Below, piece by piece: positions 5,401 through 64,000 of a stretch of DNA of 64,000 nucleotides. Origin of the DNA: a virus; IMG/VR virus record IMGVR_UViG_3300017963_000003, positions 64,001 through 128,000 of that record. One strand, given 5' to 3'. The notes under the pieces were generated by a model. The model did not search any database. It had not been told where the DNA came from and saw only the letters and a program-made list of their open reading frames with translations. Positions within the stretch are counted from its first letter, which is position 1, and every line of letters starts with the position of its first letter. The position numbers were made by a program, and so were the translations under genes.

Positions 5401-6789
5401 CTGGTAGGGGTCAAAGCCCTCCAAAAAACGGACCTTCCCCGTCTGCGTCTTCTTGGGGGCATCCGCAGGCATTTCCTGGTAGCGGTAACCTCCGGGATGC
5501 GTACCATGACCGGGGGAGAAGTTCCCTCCCGTGATGACTTCTCCACAACCGCATGAACACGTCCGTGGCCCTCCCCACACAGGCCACTTGTGATTCGGGG
5601 TACACCGAATAGAAGGAGACCCCACCACATCGATCTCAACAAGCTGATCAGTACCTTCACGCTCCAGAGCAAGCACGCTACAAGGAGCGCCGTCCTTGTC
5701 GAGCAACTCGTCCCCGATGTCCAAGTCTCCGATGGGGCGCTGAGAACCGTCCCCGAGGGTAACAAGCGTCTCGGGGACGAAACACTGAGGATCGACCTCG
5801 GCCCTATTGAGCATCTCCAAGAGCTTCGACTCCGCCCCTGGAGCGGGAATCCACCCCGTGGCGGGATCACCGAGCTTGAGCACCTTGACCGGCGCCGCAT
5901 GACGCCGATACGTGGCGATGGTCGAGTTGTACACCGCGTCCTCGACCATGAAGATCCGCCACATCCTGCTCGCCAAAGAAGTCCCCCGTACCTGGTAGGG
6001 ATGAAGCTTCCTGGCGATGAACGTGGTGTTCAACGGAGACAGACGGATCTTCTGCCGTGCCATGATCTTGGACACGAACTCCGCCGGCAACCTCGACCGG
6101 AACTCCCTGGCCTCGGGAGATCCGTCCGCGAGCATGCGCCGAAGCTCCTCGTCAGGCACGAAGTTGATGATCGGGTCCATGTTGACCACCGGAGCATCGA
6201 CAACGTCGATGTAGTCCGGGTTGTGCATGGCGATGTAGGTCCAGATACCGAGGCTGTCATCAAAGAAGCAGTGAGGGATCGCCTCCCCCATGACCAAGTA
6301 CTCTTTGATTATATATCGTAACCGATCCATGAGATGCGAGACCTGGCACATGTACTCCAGCGTGTCCCGGATCTCTCGGCTCTTCTCGTCCCCGACAGAA
6401 ATGTCAAAATCGCTGACCAGCATCTCGGCATACATGTCCACGGCAGTCCCGAAGATGGGGTCCGTTTCGTGAAACAGTCGCCAGGCTCTGTTGGCCTCCT
6501 GACGAGTCTTCGGGTACTGGACTCGGTCAGGAGATTCGACTCCAGGCATGTAGGGGCGCTGCATGTGGTACATGGCGCTCCCACCACCCCCGGACGGGTA
6601 CGGAGATACCCCCATCGGCATGTTGCCACCGAAGAAGCCTGCGGCCTCCCGACGGCCCGCAGAGGGGGCCAGCGTGGCGTTCTTGGGTAGAACGCTCGCC
6701 GCTAGCTCCCTGCGACCGTAAGAGGGGTCTGAAGAGACGATGCGGGGCTTGAAGACTTCCCCACGACGGGTCGGAACGAAATTAGCCAT
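2395..6789 (-). CDS. Portal protein with two inteins (1464 aa precursor, 611 aa after splicing)
   Basis: GTSLASRMWRIFMVEDAVYNSTIATYRRHAAPVKVLKLGD resembles large-phage portals; removing both inteins leaves a continuous portal-sized protein with a Pro/Gly/Ala tail. Confidence 0.8.
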   Translation of the reverse strand: MANFVPTRRGEVFKPRIVSSDPSYGRRELAASVLPKNATLAPSAGRREAAGFFGGNMPMGVSPYPSGGGGSAMYHMQRPYMPGVESPDRVQYPKTRQEANRAWRLFHETDPIFGTAVDMYAEMLVSDFDISVGDEKSREIRDTLEYMCQVSHLMDRLRYIIKEYLVMGEAIPHCFFDDSLGIWTYIAMHNPDYIDVVDAPVVNMDPIINFVPDEELRRMLADGSPEAREFRSRLPAEFVSKIMARQKIRLSPLNTTFIARKLHPYQVRGTSLASRMWRIFMVEDAVYNSTIATYRRHAAPVKVLKLGDPATGWIPAPGAESKLLEMLNRAEVDPQCFVPETLVTLGDGSQRPIGDLDIGDELLDKDGAPCSVLALEREGTDQLVEIDVVGSPSIRCTPNHKWPVWGGPRTCSCGCGEVITGGNFSPGHGTHPGGYRYQEMPADAPKKTQTGKVRFLEGFDPYQKLLSTQLRPGDYLMIPRRFEENRPENVTREKARLLGYYVAEGNTVGVYEREDGSVRKGFELSFGADEKDTLVRDACSIVEALCDYRPEVFYGDRSNCQVRARRNASIDLAEWLELHGGSGARTKRLSGEVMSWPLDLKYEFLKGYIGGDGSSIWKKPGSSGRYVEVSSSSRNLINQVKLILAQWGTYGNFSEREQSEETFGPGNAQYRLHVYGQAAADLSRDIWGFELQDVEGRTPRQWWTDNDYLYVKVRGVKVVECEEPQTVVNMTVSGDHSYLTDCIGTRNSWLIYHYGINFEAWGTNDRAVTINKEHDVIEKVKLLALGLSKSFMTGEVTYACSVDGTSVRLSDGSYSEIQDIQRGDVVVDRFGHPRGVTDVLKYPSPDEMVKLTLYGDRELTLTDNHKLPVFTRPHECLCGCGEDLGDAKATSGGRRKWRSFSPQHHKLSMRGGRDREWVDYMHGDRVIASFPAEHEPFQRLRADEVRVGDWLMIPRGFEECGVEATPGNLARARLLGYYTAEGSTDFTASDSGNKVTRFSFGRVDCAKESFYVADVAEILESLGHLCTIQRNLKHPESEAPSYTVYVPTAATGMSNYLESRAGKGSDSKNFSSEVMGWGLELKRELLKGMYRGDGYLFKQGNRLDVVYTTTSTQLMRQLEVILTQLGYSCYVHTSPEREDEKGYVHKECHYITCAGKQARSLAELIWSDVPDVWAGIDREGFDRDDCQGERHEVFVDDEFVYLPVKSVEVVRVDQEAHPYVYSLTVEETSSYTLDNIASFNSAKSGLQVFLRRLLSLRQFLENMWLYPKYFRPISEINEWTTSSPSEVNHKYRIKRTAQEIQEQNLVLMPTVKWKNKLDPSVDQDLLNAYKMLEQGFGIKLSKSTVTSAVGVDWQDELDKSLREFKSAEEMKKQTLGKADLQKYEQQGGPQGAQPPGTPGAGAKPPAAAGKPPGGAAPAGGAGGGLLAPGGMNDASQPPGSAEGGGVLQETIESPSGGGLPTGVG
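3070..4392 (-). mobile_element. Intein 2 with LAGLIDADG homing endonuclease (441 aa)
   Basis: Starts EVTYA|CSVDGTSVRLSDG; LLGYYTAEGS and LLKGMYRGDGY blocks; ends SYTLDNIASFN|S. Confidence 0.9.
4549..5784 (-). mobile_element. Intein 1 with LAGLIDADG homing endonuclease (412 aa)
   Basis: Starts EVDPQ|CFVPETLVTLGDG; LLGYYVAEGN and FLKGYIGGDGS endonuclease blocks; ends HSYLTDCIGTRN|S. Confidence 0.9.
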
Positions 6790-42763: not shown

Positions 42764-42837
42764 CCGGGTGTGGCGCAGTCTGGCAGCGCACTTGATTCGG
42801 GATCAAGGGGTCGGGAGTTCGAATCTCCCCGCCCGGA
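42764..42837 (+). tRNA. tRNA-Pro(CGG)
   Basis: Cloverleaf folded by hand; anticodon arm CTTGA-TTCGGGA-TCAAG. Confidence 0.9.
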
Positions 42838-43004
42838 CAGATGGAGAGAGAACGATGAAACGCAAGAGACGAGAAACAGTCATGCCAACCATCACTCCCG
42901 CCGCCACGGCTCCCCGCCGGTGGTGCCTCTCCTCGTTTACCCAGCTATCCCAACATCTCTATTTGAATTCGAGTCTGTAGGCCTAGTTTAGGCCCGCAGA
43001 GCTT

Positions 43005-43091
43005 GGAGTCGTAGCCTCAACGGTAAGGCCCCGCCCCGGAACGGCGTGTGCACGGTCTCCCGTGGTCCAGGTTCGAATCCTGGCGGCTCCG
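43005..43091 (+). tRNA. tRNA-Ser(GGA)-like, atypical anticodon arm
   Basis: Good acceptor, D and T arms and long variable arm; loop CCGGAAC lacks U33 and the stem has only 4 pairs. Confidence 0.6.
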
Positions 43092-43165
43092 CTCGAATTG
43101 TTGTGAAGGAATAAGCAGCAACGCTGTTTGCTGCTCGTAGATCTTTGAAAATTGAGCAGCAAACA

Positions 43166-43257
43166 GGAGGGATGGCTGAAATGGCAATAGCGGCGGTCTC
43201 GAAAATCGCAGCCCACGGCGTCGTACCGTGGTGGGGGTTCGAATCCCTCTCCCTCCT
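43166..43257 (+). tRNA. tRNA-Ser(CGA)
   Basis: GCGGT-CTCGAAA-ATCGC; long variable arm CCACGG/CCGTGG. Confidence 0.85.
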
Positions 43258-43259
43258 CT

Positions 43260-43339
43260 GTGGCCGTAGCTCAAAGTTTGGATAGAGCCCCGGATTGTGG
43301 CTCCGGGGGTTGCGGGTTCGAGTCCCGTCGGTCACTCCA
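43260..43339 (+). tRNA. tRNA-His(GTG)
   Basis: CCGGA-TTGTGGC-TCCGG; encoded CCA. Confidence 0.9.
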
Positions 43340-43340
43340 G

Positions 43341-43412
43341 AGGGCTGTAGTTCAGTTGGAAGAACATCGGGATTTGACCCCGACGACCACGGTTCAAGTC
43401 CGTGCAGCCCTT
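43341..43412 (+). tRNA. tRNA-Gln(TTG)
   Basis: TCGGG-ATTTGAC-CCCGA. Confidence 0.8.
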
Positions 43413-43415
43413 CAG

Positions 43416-43491
43416 GTCTCGGTAGCTGAGTTGGTTCAAGCGCTGGGCTGCAACCCCGGAGACACCCGTTCAAGTCGGGTCCGAGACTCCA
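43416..43491 (+). tRNA. tRNA-Cys(GCA)
   Basis: CTGGG-CTGCAAC-CCCGG; encoded CCA. Confidence 0.9.
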
Positions 43492-43492
43492 C

Positions 43493-43577
43493 GGAAGGAT
43501 GGCTGAGAGGTAAAGCAGCGGGTTGCTAACCCGTGGTCGTCCGCCAGGACGCGGAGGTTCGATCCCTCCTCCTTCCG
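43493..43577 (+). tRNA. tRNA-Ser(GCT)
   Basis: GCGGG-TTGCTAA-CCCGT; long variable arm; G73. Confidence 0.9.
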
Positions 43578-43582
43578 CAAAC

Positions 43583-43656
43583 GGGTGGGTAGCTTGAACT
43601 GGTAGAGCACCGGACTCCAAATCCGGAAGGTCCAGGTTCGAATCCTGGCTCACCTG
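43583..43656 (+). tRNA. tRNA-Trp(CCA)
   Basis: CCGGA-CTCCAAA-TCCGG. Confidence 0.9.
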
Positions 43657-43661
43657 CTGAT

Positions 43662-43737
43662 GCGTCCGTAGGCTAATTGGCAAAGTCGCCTCGCTCAAAA
43701 TGAGGGTCAACTCTCGGTTCGAGTCCGAGCGGACGCA
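43662..43737 (+). tRNA. tRNA-Leu(CAA), short variable region
   Basis: CCTCG-CTCAAAA-TGAGG; 7-nt variable region. Confidence 0.8.
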
Positions 43738-43741
43738 CAAA

Positions 43742-43814
43742 GGACGGATAGCTCAGTTGGTAGAGCGGTGGCTTGTTAAGCCAAGGCGCGGGGGTTCGAG
43801 TCCCTCTCCGTCCG
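43742..43814 (+). tRNA. tRNA-Asn(GTT)
   Basis: GTGGC-TTGTTAA-GCCAA. Confidence 0.85.
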
Positions 43815-43819
43815 CAGTT

Positions 43820-43892
43820 GCGCGTGTAGGCCAACGGAAGAGTCGCCAGGTTCAGAACCTGGATGTTGGAGGTTCGAATCCTCTCACGCGCA
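43820..43892 (+). tRNA. tRNA-Leu(CAG), short variable loop
   Basis: CCAGG-TTCAGAA-CCTGG; 5-nt variable loop; 73 nt. Confidence 0.8.
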
Positions 43893-43897
43893 CCGTT

Positions 43898-43969
43898 GGG
43901 TAGGTAACTCAGTAGGTAGAGTGCCGGCCTGAAAAGCCGGATGCGGCGGTTCGATTCCGCCCCTGCTCA
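43898..43969 (+). tRNA. tRNA-Phe(GAA)
   Basis: CCGGC-CTGAAAA-GCCGG. Confidence 0.85.
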
Positions 43970-43973
43970 CTAT

Positions 43974-44046
43974 GCCCGTGTAGGCCAACGGCAGAGTCGC
44001 TGGATCGAGGGTCCAGAGGTTGGTGGTTCGAATCCACTCACGGGCA
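43974..44046 (+). tRNA. tRNA-Leu(GAG), short variable loop
   Basis: CTGGA-TCGAGGG-TCCAG; 5-nt variable loop; clear paralogue of tRNA-Leu(CAG). Confidence 0.75.
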
Positions 44047-44050
44047 TTCT

Positions 44051-44137
44051 GGGAGCCGTCATAAGGCAGGCTGGGCCTACGGAGCGCTGTAAACGCTCTC
44101 CTCCACGAGGCACGTGGTTCGATTCCACCGGCTCCCA
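44051..44137 (+). tRNA. tRNA-Tyr(GTA), atypical D arm
   Basis: GAGCG-CTGTAAA-CGCTC; variable arm CCTC/GAGG; enlarged D region. Confidence 0.75.
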
Positions 44138-44144
44138 CCGCACG

Positions 44145-61339: not shown

Positions 61340-62590
61340 GTCGAGACTTCTAAACCGTCTCACAGACATCGAGGGGATCGGCCAGTCGAGACTTCTAAAC
61401 CGTCTCGCAGGTATTGTAAGCTGAGGCGATGAACCGTATTGCCAACACGGCCCGACAGTCGAGACTTCTAAACCGTCTCGCAGGTATTGGAAGCCCGCGA
61501 GAGTGAGCGCGTCTCCAGATGAGGCCAAGACGTCGAGACTTCTAAACCGTCTCGCAGGTATTGGAAGGGCCTCATGGTAGAGGATGTTGTCGGCGCGGTT
61601 GGGGGTCGAGACTTCTAAACCGTCTCGCAGGTATTGTAAGAAGAGCAACGGGCGAAGTGAGGGTACCAAGCACTTTGCGTCGAGACTTCTAAACCGTCTC
61701 GCAGGTATTGGAAGGGCGATCCCGAAAAAGATCGCGGCTTGGCCTCTCAGTCGAGACTTCTAAACCGTCTCGCAGGTATTGTAAGAACTGCGTGTTCGGG
61801 CTCCAGCTCAACCCGGCCTCTCAGTCGAGACTTCTAAACCGTCTCGCAGGTATTGTAAGCTCCGCGCGACGGAAGGGTAACGTCTACATCACCACGTCGA
61901 GACTTCTAAACCGTCTCGCAGGTATTGTAAGAGTGGACTGGCAACCACTCCAACGGAGAGTGGCGTCCGTCGAGACCTCTAAACCGTCTCGCAGGTATTG
62001 TAAACAAGGGACGGTGCGCGCCCTGGGCCAGGCCTCCGGGATGTCGAGACTTCTAAACCGTCTCGCAGGTATTGGAGGACCCCAACCGGGGAAAGCACAG
62101 TAGAAAAGGAATGTCGAGACTTCTAAACCGTCTCGCAGGTATTGTAAGTCGGGTACCAGCCGAGAAGGTGTGTACCTCTACCATCGTCGAGACCTCTAAA
62201 CCGTCTCGCAGGTATTGGAAGGGTCGGGTTGCGCGGTGGTCGGGATTCGACACCTCGGGTCGAGACTTCTAAACCGTCTCGCAGGTATTGGAAGCTGGTG
62301 ACGCAGGTCCGGGATGGGGCGTTCTGCAAGCTGTCGAGACTTCTAAACCGTCTCGCAGGTATTGGAAAAAGAGCAACGGGCGAAGTGAGGGTACCAAGCA
62401 CTTTGCGTCGAGACTTCTAAACCGTCTCGCAGGTATTGGAAGACGGAATGCGGCGTGAAGCTGGTGGAGCATCCGGGTGTCGAGACTTCTAAACCGTCTC
62501 GCAGGTATTGTAAGCAGGATTTCTCGGTCGAGCGTGCTGAGGTTGGCCATCTTCGTCGAGACTTCTAAACCGTCTCGCAGGTATTGTAAG
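61340..62590 (-). CRISPR. CRISPR array: 17 full 36-bp repeats plus one degenerate trailer repeat; 16 spacers of 34-40 nt plus a short trailer spacer
   Basis: Minus-strand repeat CTT(A/C)CAATACCTGCGAGACGGTTTAGAAGTCTCGAC with a 3-prime CGAGAC/GTCTCG hairpin. Plus-strand starts: 61340 (degenerate), 61385, 61458, 61532, 61605, 61679, 61750, 61824, 61896, 61969, 62043, 62113, 62186, 62259, 62333, 62407, 62479, 62555. Orientation inferred from the degenerate end and the cas gene. Confidence 0.97.
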
Positions 62591-62756
62591 GGCGCTTCGC
62601 CAGATCACAACAATTTCAGCAAGTTTGCTCTATGATTTCGAGCGGTCCACCACGACTGCCGTCGCGCCCAGAATTTCTTCAATGGTTTCGAGCACCAGGC
62701 CTCACCACGACCACAGCGCTCGCCAAATTGTCAAAGAACCAACCGACCCGAACCGC
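62591..62756 (-). promoter_or_regulatory. Putative CRISPR leader
   Basis: 166-nt non-coding, relatively AT-rich segment between the cas stop and the first repeat. Confidence 0.55.
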
Positions 62757-64000
62757 TCACACCGAGGGCTGCGCAGCCTCCTGGGACTTACGCTGCTGAA
62801 CGATCTTCTTCCCCTTCTTGCGCCCTTTCTGACGTCTCGACATCTTCGGCTCGACAGGCACGCTCCCGTCGATCATCTTGAGGGTCTCGTCGTTCCTGTA
62901 CAGACGCATGATGTTCCGTGCGGCATTCGCATCCTGGTCCCACTTCGCACCGCACTCCACGCAGACATGATCGACCTCAGGAATAGCATCCCAGGGCTCC
63001 AGGCAACCGCACTCGAAGCACCGCTGGGTGGTCATGCGGGCATCGACCCAAACCACGGTCCCTCCGCGCGCGAGGAACGCCTGGACGAACATCATCCGCA
63101 GCTCGTAGCATGCGGCCTCTTTCTGCTGGTTGCGCGCGGCCTGGATCTCCACCTTCTCGCTCTCAGGGGGCTCGTGCTTCTGCGTCTCGGTGAGCTTGAA
63201 ATCCTCGATCACCAGCACCTTGTACTTCCGGGCCAGCTTGGCCGCCACCCTCCGGTAGTGGTCCTTACGGCGCCTGAGAGACTTCTGCTCCTGGCTCTCC
63301 TTCCACTGCCATAGGTGTCGGTCGCCTCCGTCCCTGCGGCCCAGGGACTCCTCGTAGGTCCCACTCAGCCAGTCCTTCAGGATCTGGAAGCCCTCTCCGT
63401 CTCCATCCCATCTCTTCTCCCCCCACTTGCGGAGGAGCCCAGCGTAGCGCTTCGGTGACTTCCACGAATGCAGGTATCGCACATCCTCACGGAACCACTC
63501 GGGCAGATTCTTCTTGTTCGACTTGATCCACCCCTTGAGACTCTTCTGCATCTCGTTCTGGTTCAAGGCCCGGATCGACTGAAGACTCTCCACCTTGTCG
63601 AACCCCCGGACCACCTCGGGCTCCATGAGCAGCTCGTCTCCGCGACCCAGCGGGTCCTGGCGGTCTCTCAAGTACGCCGCGTACTCATCCCCGTCCACCA
63701 GGTACGCCACCCTGATCTGATCCTCTCCGCGCTTTCTCCAACCGATGTCGACAGCCACTGCCCCACGTCCACTCCCGAACTCCTCGTGCTGGTACTCAGC
63801 AGGGAGGCCCAGGCTGAAGTGCACCGTCCACCGAGGACGATCAGAGATCATACGCCGCTTCACGACGGCCCACTTGATCCGCACCCCCTGGGGCAGCGGA
63901 CGGTGCATGATGATAGGGAACTCCGCCCAAACAGGACCTCTGCTCTTCGTACTCCCCACTCGGAGCCGCATCACCCCACGACGCTTCTTGCGCCGCGTCT
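62757..64000 (-). CDS. cas12m: Type V CRISPR effector, Cas12m-like (V-M/V-U1, C2c4), N-terminus outside the window
   Basis: Frame is open to 64000. MHRPLP, RuvC-I AVAVDIGWR, helical insert HSWKSPKRYA...DRHLWQW, bridge helix RRRKDHYRRVAAKLA, RuvC-II VLVIED, Zn ribbon CFEC/CVEC, RuvC-III DQDANAARNI; adjacent array. Confidence 0.8.
   Translation of the reverse strand, partial: TRRKKRRGVMRLRVGSTKSRGPVWAEFPIIMHRPLPQGVRIKWAVVKRRMISDRPRWTVHFSLGLPAEYQHEEFGSGRGAVAVDIGWRKRGEDQIRVAYLVDGDEYAAYLRDRQDPLGRGDELLMEPEVVRGFDKVESLQSIRALNQNEMQKSLKGWIKSNKKNLPEWFREDVRYLHSWKSPKRYAGLLRKWGEKRWDGDGEGFQILKDWLSGTYEESLGRRDGGDRHLWQWKESQEQKSLRRRKDHYRRVAAKLARKYKVLVIEDFKLTETQKHEPPESEKVEIQAARNQQKEAACYELRMMFVQAFLARGGTVVWVDARMTTQRCFECGCLEPWDAIPEVDHVCVECGAKWDQDANAARNIMRLYRNDETLKMIDGSVPVEPKMSRRQKGRKKGKKIVQQRKSQEAAQPSV

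Follow-up and report, generated by a model that had tools for sequence, protein, structure and literature searches.

Within CRISPR subtype V-M, effector proteins (Cas12m) with an acidic D-E-D triad in the RuvC site have been recognised since 2022, when clades of this kind (clades 3 and 4) were defined by Wu et al., according to the account in PMC10442227. Described D-E-D members, such as the orthologues of PMC11013384 and the solved protein 23vw, are proteins of ~600 amino acids (aa) with D/E/D, a CCCC zinc ribbon and His-Arg readers. They go with a 36-nt repeat whose pseudoknot handle ends in AC, they need no trans-activating CRISPR RNA (tracrRNA), and no adaptation genes adjoin them. Here we describe a system of the same make-up, a cas12m gene followed by a CRISPR array, in a 64,000-nt stretch of viral DNA (the window) that corresponds to bases 64001-128000 of the IMG/VR record IMGVR_UViG_3300017963_000003. 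Unlike these bacterial-chromosomal effectors, ours is phage-borne, and compared with 23vw (577 aa) it is longer (642 aa), having short insertions and a basic C-terminal tail.

A phage location is not new either. MvCas12m, a Cas12m with D/E/D on the myxophage MV-1, was reported in a September 2026 preprint (bioRxiv 10.64898/2026.09.14.751636), and a further module can be found in GenBank in Virus Rctr197k (KX853510.1, 197 kb, from a methane-oxidising enrichment culture). By its description MvCas12m likewise lies beside an array, lacks cas1/2/4 and a tracrRNA and has no protospacers identified for its guides, but it belongs to a temperate Polyangiales phage and has 610 aa and 8 spacers, as opposed to 642 aa and 17 spacers, one of them self-like, in our case. 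The Cas12m type, the intact D-E-D and the phage location are thus all already known. A first reading of the window from its sequence (the original prediction) had treated the triad and the phage location as unusual, but neither is, given the clades defined in 2022 and the preprint.

Two other groups of systems are useful for comparison. MmCas12m2 (8hhl, 8hio) and GoCas12m (8pm4) resemble our protein in fold (TM 0.73-0.78) and domain order, and their guide scaffolds share with our repeat a helix of 6 bp, a G:A pair (a possible one in our repeat) that closes this helix beside the terminal AC, and a second short helix to the loop. They differ from it in their H-D-D triad and ~20% sequence identity, and the loop of our repeat is one nucleotide longer. 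Cas12j/CasPhi and Cas-lambda of huge phages are likewise compact type V effectors with arrays and no adaptation genes, and they are thought to oppose competing elements. However, they are separate Cas12 families, active nucleases, and have different repeats.

On balance we favour the view that the locus is a functional V-M module without adaptation genes on a 192-kb phage, where it would most likely serve as a non-cutting silencer in competition between phages. What the locus adds is another documented case of a large phage with a compact, adaptation-less Cas12m module, a pattern that is only now entering the literature.

A Cas12m gene and its array on a tailed phage

The source record is a virus genome of 192,260 bp with direct terminal repeats (DTR) and is rated 100% complete. 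A portal protein (E 2e-66), a large terminase (E 4e-47) and tail fibres are all encoded in the window alongside cas12m, and the carrier is a complete genome of a tailed phage (Caudoviricetes). The cas12m gene, with its flanks, is identical on 129-192-kb contigs from other samples. The features of the locus, in window coordinates, are:

62757..64000, minus strand: open reading frame (ORF) with the C-terminal 413 codons of cas12m; the full gene runs to window-equivalent position 64685 (protein P0001)
63891..63905, minus strand: HRPLP motif (H261-P265), aligned to His269/Arg270 of Cas12m2
62952..63020, minus strand: CCCC zinc ribbon of the TNB domain (C556, C559, C575, C578), PF07282 E 6.7e-12
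62591..62756, minus strand: leader of 166 nt from the cas12m stop codon to repeat 1, with blocks conserved in a sister locus (L002)
61340..62590, minus strand: CRISPR array with 17 complete repeats of 36 nt, 16 complete spacers (34-40 nt) and a further spacer of 20 nt
62369..62406, minus strand: spacer 3, identical to spacer 13 (61641-61678); duplicated 110-nt unit
61340-61364, minus strand: truncated terminal repeat of 25 nt, the end of the array

The complete Cas12m of 642 aa (window 62757..64685) could be recovered from the whole phage record. A phmmer search against the PDB aligned it over nearly its whole length with the Cas12m proteins 23vw_A (E 3e-66, residues 11-595), Cas12m2 (E 7e-28, residues 18-590) and GoCas12m (E 3e-20, residues 18-589), while the matches to Cas12f and TnpB were confined to residues 522-595 (~1e-5). 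An AlphaFold2 model made from 103 homologues (pLDDT 92.9, pTM 0.88) shows the Cas12m fold with a WED domain, a coiled-coil REC domain and a RuvC domain with an inserted zinc-ribbon TNB. Its best Foldseek matches are 8hhl and 8hio (Cas12m2) and 8pm4 (GoCas12m), with TM scores of 0.67-0.78. The next family is Cas12f with TM 0.37/0.52 (0.37 on the query), and on the query TnpB reached at most 0.37 and CasPhi and Cas-lambda at most 0.32. Pfam picks up the Cas12f1-like TNB zinc ribbon alone. Sequence, fold, the architecture of the repeat and the absence of a tracrRNA all place the protein in subtype V-M. Membership in Cas12f, Cas12j or Cas-lambda was rejected, as the Cas12f2 model gave 18 bits against a cut-off of 450 and the TM scores were far below those of the Cas12m structures.

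Among the 103 homologues R262 is invariant, H261 is found in 99, P263 and P265 are conserved in at least 90% and the four zinc-ribbon Cys residues in at least 92% each. H261/R262 align in phmmer with H269/R270 of Cas12m2, the residues by which that protein reads the end of the repeat, namely C(-1) and the G:A pair (PMC10442227). The HRPLP, GWR and WKSP.R.A motifs from which the original prediction placed the protein near Cas12m are present. Full-length homology and fold confirm that placement, and the profile and structure searches set the protein apart from Cas12f, Cas12j, Cas-lambda and TnpB.

The repeat consensus on the minus strand is CTTMCAATACCTGCGAGACGGTTTAGAAGTCTCGAC. It forms a hairpin, with 6 bp in the stem and 9 nt in the loop, after which comes AC, and a G:A pair is possible beside the stem. 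Repeat positions 9-11 can pair with the first three loop bases to give a 3-bp pseudoknot helix. In a comparison of six repeat types from four phage loci (our phage, L002, Rctr197k and a locus named L025) all nine pairs, six in the stem and three in the pseudoknot, were 100% paired with compensatory changes in each, compared with 20-44% in slid controls. The scaffold of the CRISPR RNA (crRNA) of Cas12m2 likewise consists of a pseudoknot and a stem and ends in AC (PMC10442227). Judged by this pairing pattern, the repeat is a Cas12m-type pseudoknot handle. In the leader lies a conserved box of the CTCTTTGACAA type (TTGACA, positions 62729-62734), a putative promoter, which precedes the array region in our phage, in L002 and in Rctr197k, in the latter directly before the array.

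No anti-repeat could be identified at the locus, nor an inverted repeat of 14 nt or more, and across the genome the best antisense match to the repeat (22/36) equals background. A second array or dispersed repeat copies were not found in the phage genome either. Most of what the original prediction said about the locus was borne out: the system is virus-borne, as the DTR-complete genome with its portal, terminase and tail fibres shows; the array follows cas12m after 166 nt on the same strand; the repeat ends in a hairpin plus AC; and an anti-repeat is lacking. Its remark that no cas1 or cas2 was in view can be extended to the whole 192-kb record and to Cas4, as none of the three gave a Pfam match there. 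Its count of 18 repeats stands if the 25-nt truncated repeat is counted with the 17 full ones.

The array holds 16 distinct spacers and is identical in four other assemblies. The guide set thus appears to be fixed, as would be expected without adaptation genes. Two shorter arrays, L003 (7 spacers) and L020 (1 spacer), were considered as natural variation and set aside as possible assembly collapse, since the duplicated 110-nt unit and the repeats can collapse in short-read assemblies.

The nearest phage in GenBank is Rctr197k. Its large terminase is 38% identical to ours and its structural genes are 33-60% identical. Its Cas12m homologue is directly followed by an annotated CRISPR region with ~20 36-nt repeats, the same stem, loop and AC, and the leader box, but this Cas12m is only 29% identical to ours and labelled 'similar to transposase', and the flanking genes show no synteny. 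Rctr197k (KX853510.1:175442-175466, L011) also has a single isolated copy of the repeat's 3' hairpin plus AC (24/25 identical), ~63 kb from its array and on the same strand. All other Cas12m relatives that were looked up lie in phage-like neighbourhoods, and a pattern-based scan of 185,579 species genomes recovered only three distant cellular relatives. No relatives of the cas12m locus were found in a search of IMG/VR. Effector, leader box and pseudoknot repeat have thus been kept together in phages whose Cas12m proteins are only 29-47% identical, including one that has been in GenBank for years under a transposase label, which points to selection on the module. For tool builders the locus provides another compact D-E-D Cas12m orthologue with a defined repeat.

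The RuvC triad and the question of cutting

All three acidic codons that the original prediction had listed are in place:

63747..63749, minus strand: RuvC-I Asp, D313, codon GAC, in VDIGWR; D in 82 and N in 20 of 103 homologues
63204..63206, minus strand: RuvC-II Glu, E494, codon GAG, in VIEDF; E in 89 and D in 10 of 103
62931..62933, minus strand: RuvC-III Asp, D585, codon GAT, in WDQDAN; D in 101/103

They align with H317/D485/D579 of MmCas12m2 and with D/E/D of 23vw. The most common state of the triad in this branch is D-E-D (79 of the 103 homologues), followed by N-D-D (10) and N-E-D (8). On a FastTree phylogeny of these homologues the first residue changes at least 8 times, and even the well-supported clade of 18 members to which our protein belongs has four N-E-D forms and one N-D-D form inside it. 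The repeated loss of the first RuvC Asp in the family speaks against taking an intact triad as a sign of cutting.

Biochemical data on relatives fit with this. Bigelyte et al. tested eight orthologues, of which four were D-E-D (MsCas12m and three others), two H-D-D and two N-D-D; DNA flanked by a protospacer adjacent motif (PAM) was bound, and none showed nuclease activity on double-stranded DNA (dsDNA). Mutation of the RuvC site left the processing of precursor crRNA (pre-crRNA) unaffected in the same study (PMC11013384). When the HDD triad of Cas12m2 was changed to DED, cutting did not return (PMC10442227). In 23vw, the closest relative with a solved structure, the aligned residues are D/E/D, and the PDB entry bears the title 'CRISPR-associated DNA-binding protein Cas12m'. 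Canonical two-metal chemistry seems to be dispensable. The original prediction had singled out the intact triad as the mark of a possibly cleavage-competent branch; with D-E-D being the commonest state and the tested D-E-D orthologues not cutting, this part of it is not supported.

E494 and D585 are much better kept across the homologues than D313, so the site has some role, perhaps in holding the displaced strand by way of a metal ion as Cas12m2 does.

The other possibility is that the protein cuts or nicks the DNA of rival phages with its intact D-E-D, and so represents a true nuclease branch of V-M. The presence of D313, E494 and D585, the prevalence of D-E-D among the homologues and the near invariance of positions 494 and 585 would all agree with this, and there are opinions in its favour in the literature: Omura et al. 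suggest that the D-E-D clades 3 and 4 may hydrolyse DNA, and the MV-1 preprint proposes nuclease activity for its phage Cas12m. We nevertheless regard it as unlikely, since none of the four tested D-E-D orthologues cut dsDNA, the back-conversion of Cas12m2 was without effect, the closest solved structure is that of a protein deposited as DNA-binding despite its D/E/D, and Asn takes the place of the first Asp in otherwise conserved close relatives.

Spacer 4 and the probable use of the guides

One spacer has a recognisable counterpart:

62295..62332, minus strand: spacer 4, with a 34/38 match to the phage's own genome at C1:162475-162512 (coordinates of the whole record), outside the window

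The match includes an exact core of 28 nt (E 7e-11). Shuffled spacers gave at best 26/38, and the 15 distinct spacers besides spacer 4 did not rise above that background in the phage. The matched site lies inside a 126-aa ORF, which has four other homologues in a set of 5.8 billion proteins. The four differences between spacer 4 and this gene amount to two synonymous changes and one Val/Thr change, and spacer 4 therefore looks as if it came from the orthologue in a close sibling phage. The own copy is mismatched at guide position 2, in the PAM-proximal seed, and paired at 16 of the first 17 positions. Its 5' flank, GCA, differs from the PAMs reported for Cas12m, which are rich in T or C. The seed mismatch and this flank would fit a guide that spares the phage's own gene. 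As far as one spacer can tell, the array is most likely aimed at sibling phages, and a near-copy of an own gene with a seed mismatch is direct sequence evidence for such an aim. The original prediction had proposed use against competing phages or silencing of host genes. Competitors are the most likely targets in view of spacer 4.

The following course of events would be consistent with these data. The cas12m gene would be transcribed from its own sigma-70-like promoter (TTGACA, 18 nt, TATATA), which is found ~50 nt ahead of the start codon, and the array would be read in the same direction from the conserved leader. If the protein behaves like its characterised relatives, it would cut the pre-crRNA unaided and without a tracrRNA, leaving guides that consist of the repeat-derived pseudoknot handle ending in AC and a spacer part of ~17-20 nt. 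The ribonucleoprotein would then, again as in these relatives, bind PAM-flanked dsDNA and block its transcription or replication, most probably without cutting. The targets, to go by spacer 4, would be close sibling phages that compete for the same host, and the phage's own gene copy would escape through the mismatch at guide position 2 and the GCA flank, which does not resemble a PAM.

Several points weigh against a silencing role in competition between phages. Five assemblies share one and the same array and adaptation genes are absent, so immunity-like turnover is not seen. Only 1 of the 16 distinct spacers has a target match, and searches of IMG/VR, JGI metagenome contigs, INPHARED and PLSDB yielded no exact protospacer. 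The retained D-E-D with near-invariant E494 and D585 implies that the RuvC site does something, which may be cutting or nicking under some condition. The match of spacer 4 could also reflect self-regulation instead.

The searches behind these negative results were of several kinds. A blastn search of the whole array against INPHARED phages and PLSDB plasmids gave no protospacer, and neither did scans of IMG/VR for exact spacers or spacer prefixes (spacers 1, 3/13, 4, 5, 10 and 14). In JGI metagenomes there was no match to the 28 nt that spacer 4 has in common with the own gene, nor to a form of this motif that allows for codon degeneracy. No cross-targeting with Rctr197k was observed in either direction, and comparison of the array with a metagenome-assembled genome of Polyangiaceae that has a distant Cas12m homologue gave chance-level matches only.

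A self-regulatory module, in which the guides and especially spacer 4 silence genes of the phage or its host in order to time infection, has a similarly small chance of being correct as cleavage. Spacer 4 does pair with the 126-aa gene of the phage itself over most of its length, Cas12m uses a heteroduplex of ~17 bp (PMC10442227), and the array is static and lacks adaptation genes. On the other hand, the mismatch falls in the seed next to the PAM, GCA is unlike the PAMs of the family, the other 15 distinct spacers lack a phage match over the shuffled background, no repeat copies are dispersed in the phage genome, and the substitution pattern resembles that of an orthologue from another phage.

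Slightly less probable still, in our opinion, is a more general catalytic use of D-E-D, in which rival DNA is cut or nicked or some other substrate is acted on, with the own gene protected by the seed mismatch and the missing PAM. If true, this would be the first natural nuclease-active V-M effector. That the locus was captured from a host or another element and has fallen out of use as an inert passenger appears very improbable. The lack of adaptation genes, an array that is the same across assemblies and the missing targets for most spacers could be read in this way, but at least five assemblies have the gene in intact and identical form, the repeats are nearly perfect, and gene, leader box and handle have been kept in the distant phage relatives. 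Finally, a TnpB nuclease of an IS200/IS605-type (or IS607) transposon mistaken for a Cas protein was refuted, as the NCBIfam TnpB models and PF07282 match just the C-terminal RuvC/zinc-ribbon part (the former with 49, 31.5 and 24.2 bits against cut-offs of 100, 350 and 425, and in the C-terminal third only), the full-length match and fold are those of Cas12m whatever the transposase label in Rctr197k, an 18-repeat array stands where the omega RNA would be, and no transposon ends or inverted repeats were found at the locus.

Cas12m relatives and other features of the phage genome

Some of the Cas12m relatives have unusual surroundings. The sister locus L002 (Logan SRR6963591; protein P0004, 47% identical) has a homologous leader and one solo repeat at ~6340-6375. 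Within L002:6150-6430 there is also a 38-nt inverted repeat (89% complementary), in which the promoter-like TTGACA region of the leader (6167-6204) is matched by 6391-6428, a site that begins ~15 nt past the solo repeat. Possible interpretations are one natural guide tied to the promoter of its own locus, a stem of the RNase III type, or the termini of a small element. Its register is unfit for canonical Cas12 targeting.

Downstream of Cas12m in L008:7768-9100 (180 kb, P0023) and L026:8900-10060 (105 kb, P0055), both on phage-like contigs, we identified ~20-28 non-identical repeats of ~30 nt. The stems of these repeats covary between copies (ACAGA/TCTGT, GTCGG/CCGAC, GCCAG/CTGGC). The period is 46-50 nt in L008, with ~17-18 nt between repeats, and the spacing in L026 is irregular. 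These tracts are non-canonical arrays with guide-length spacers. Upstream of the Cas12m homologue P0023, at a distance of 6 kb, there is an AcrVA2-like gene (L007/L008:1-186), and in the P0055 locus a separate TnpB (OrfB_IS605) gene is found just past the array-like region on the opposite strand (L026:10063-10983).

The phage-like locus L025:8914-9530 (ENA ERZ27256798) contains the Cas12m homologue P0059 and a canonical array of 7 repeats with the same stem, loop and AC. It also has a second mini-array of two repeats with a different repeat. As this locus comes from the same sample as one copy of our phage, several Cas12m phages co-occur in one sample.

In our phage, PHROGs assigned no function to the neighbours of the array or to the gene matched by spacer 4, IMG/VR had no relatives of the protein encoded by that gene, and Rfam gave nothing beyond one chance-level snoRNA match. 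Window positions 42764-44139 hold, on the plus strand, a tRNA gene cluster with 14 members (Pro, Ser x3, His, Gln, Cys, Trp, Leu x3, Asn, Phe and Tyr). Upstream of cas12m and past the window edge there is a noncoding stretch of ~1 kb with iterated motifs (L005:690-1750, corresponding to C1:128690-129750). It contains the 11-nt unit GGTACTTGATG six times in tandem and several copies of AGGTAG and TTGACAA, and is possibly an origin or a regulatory hub.

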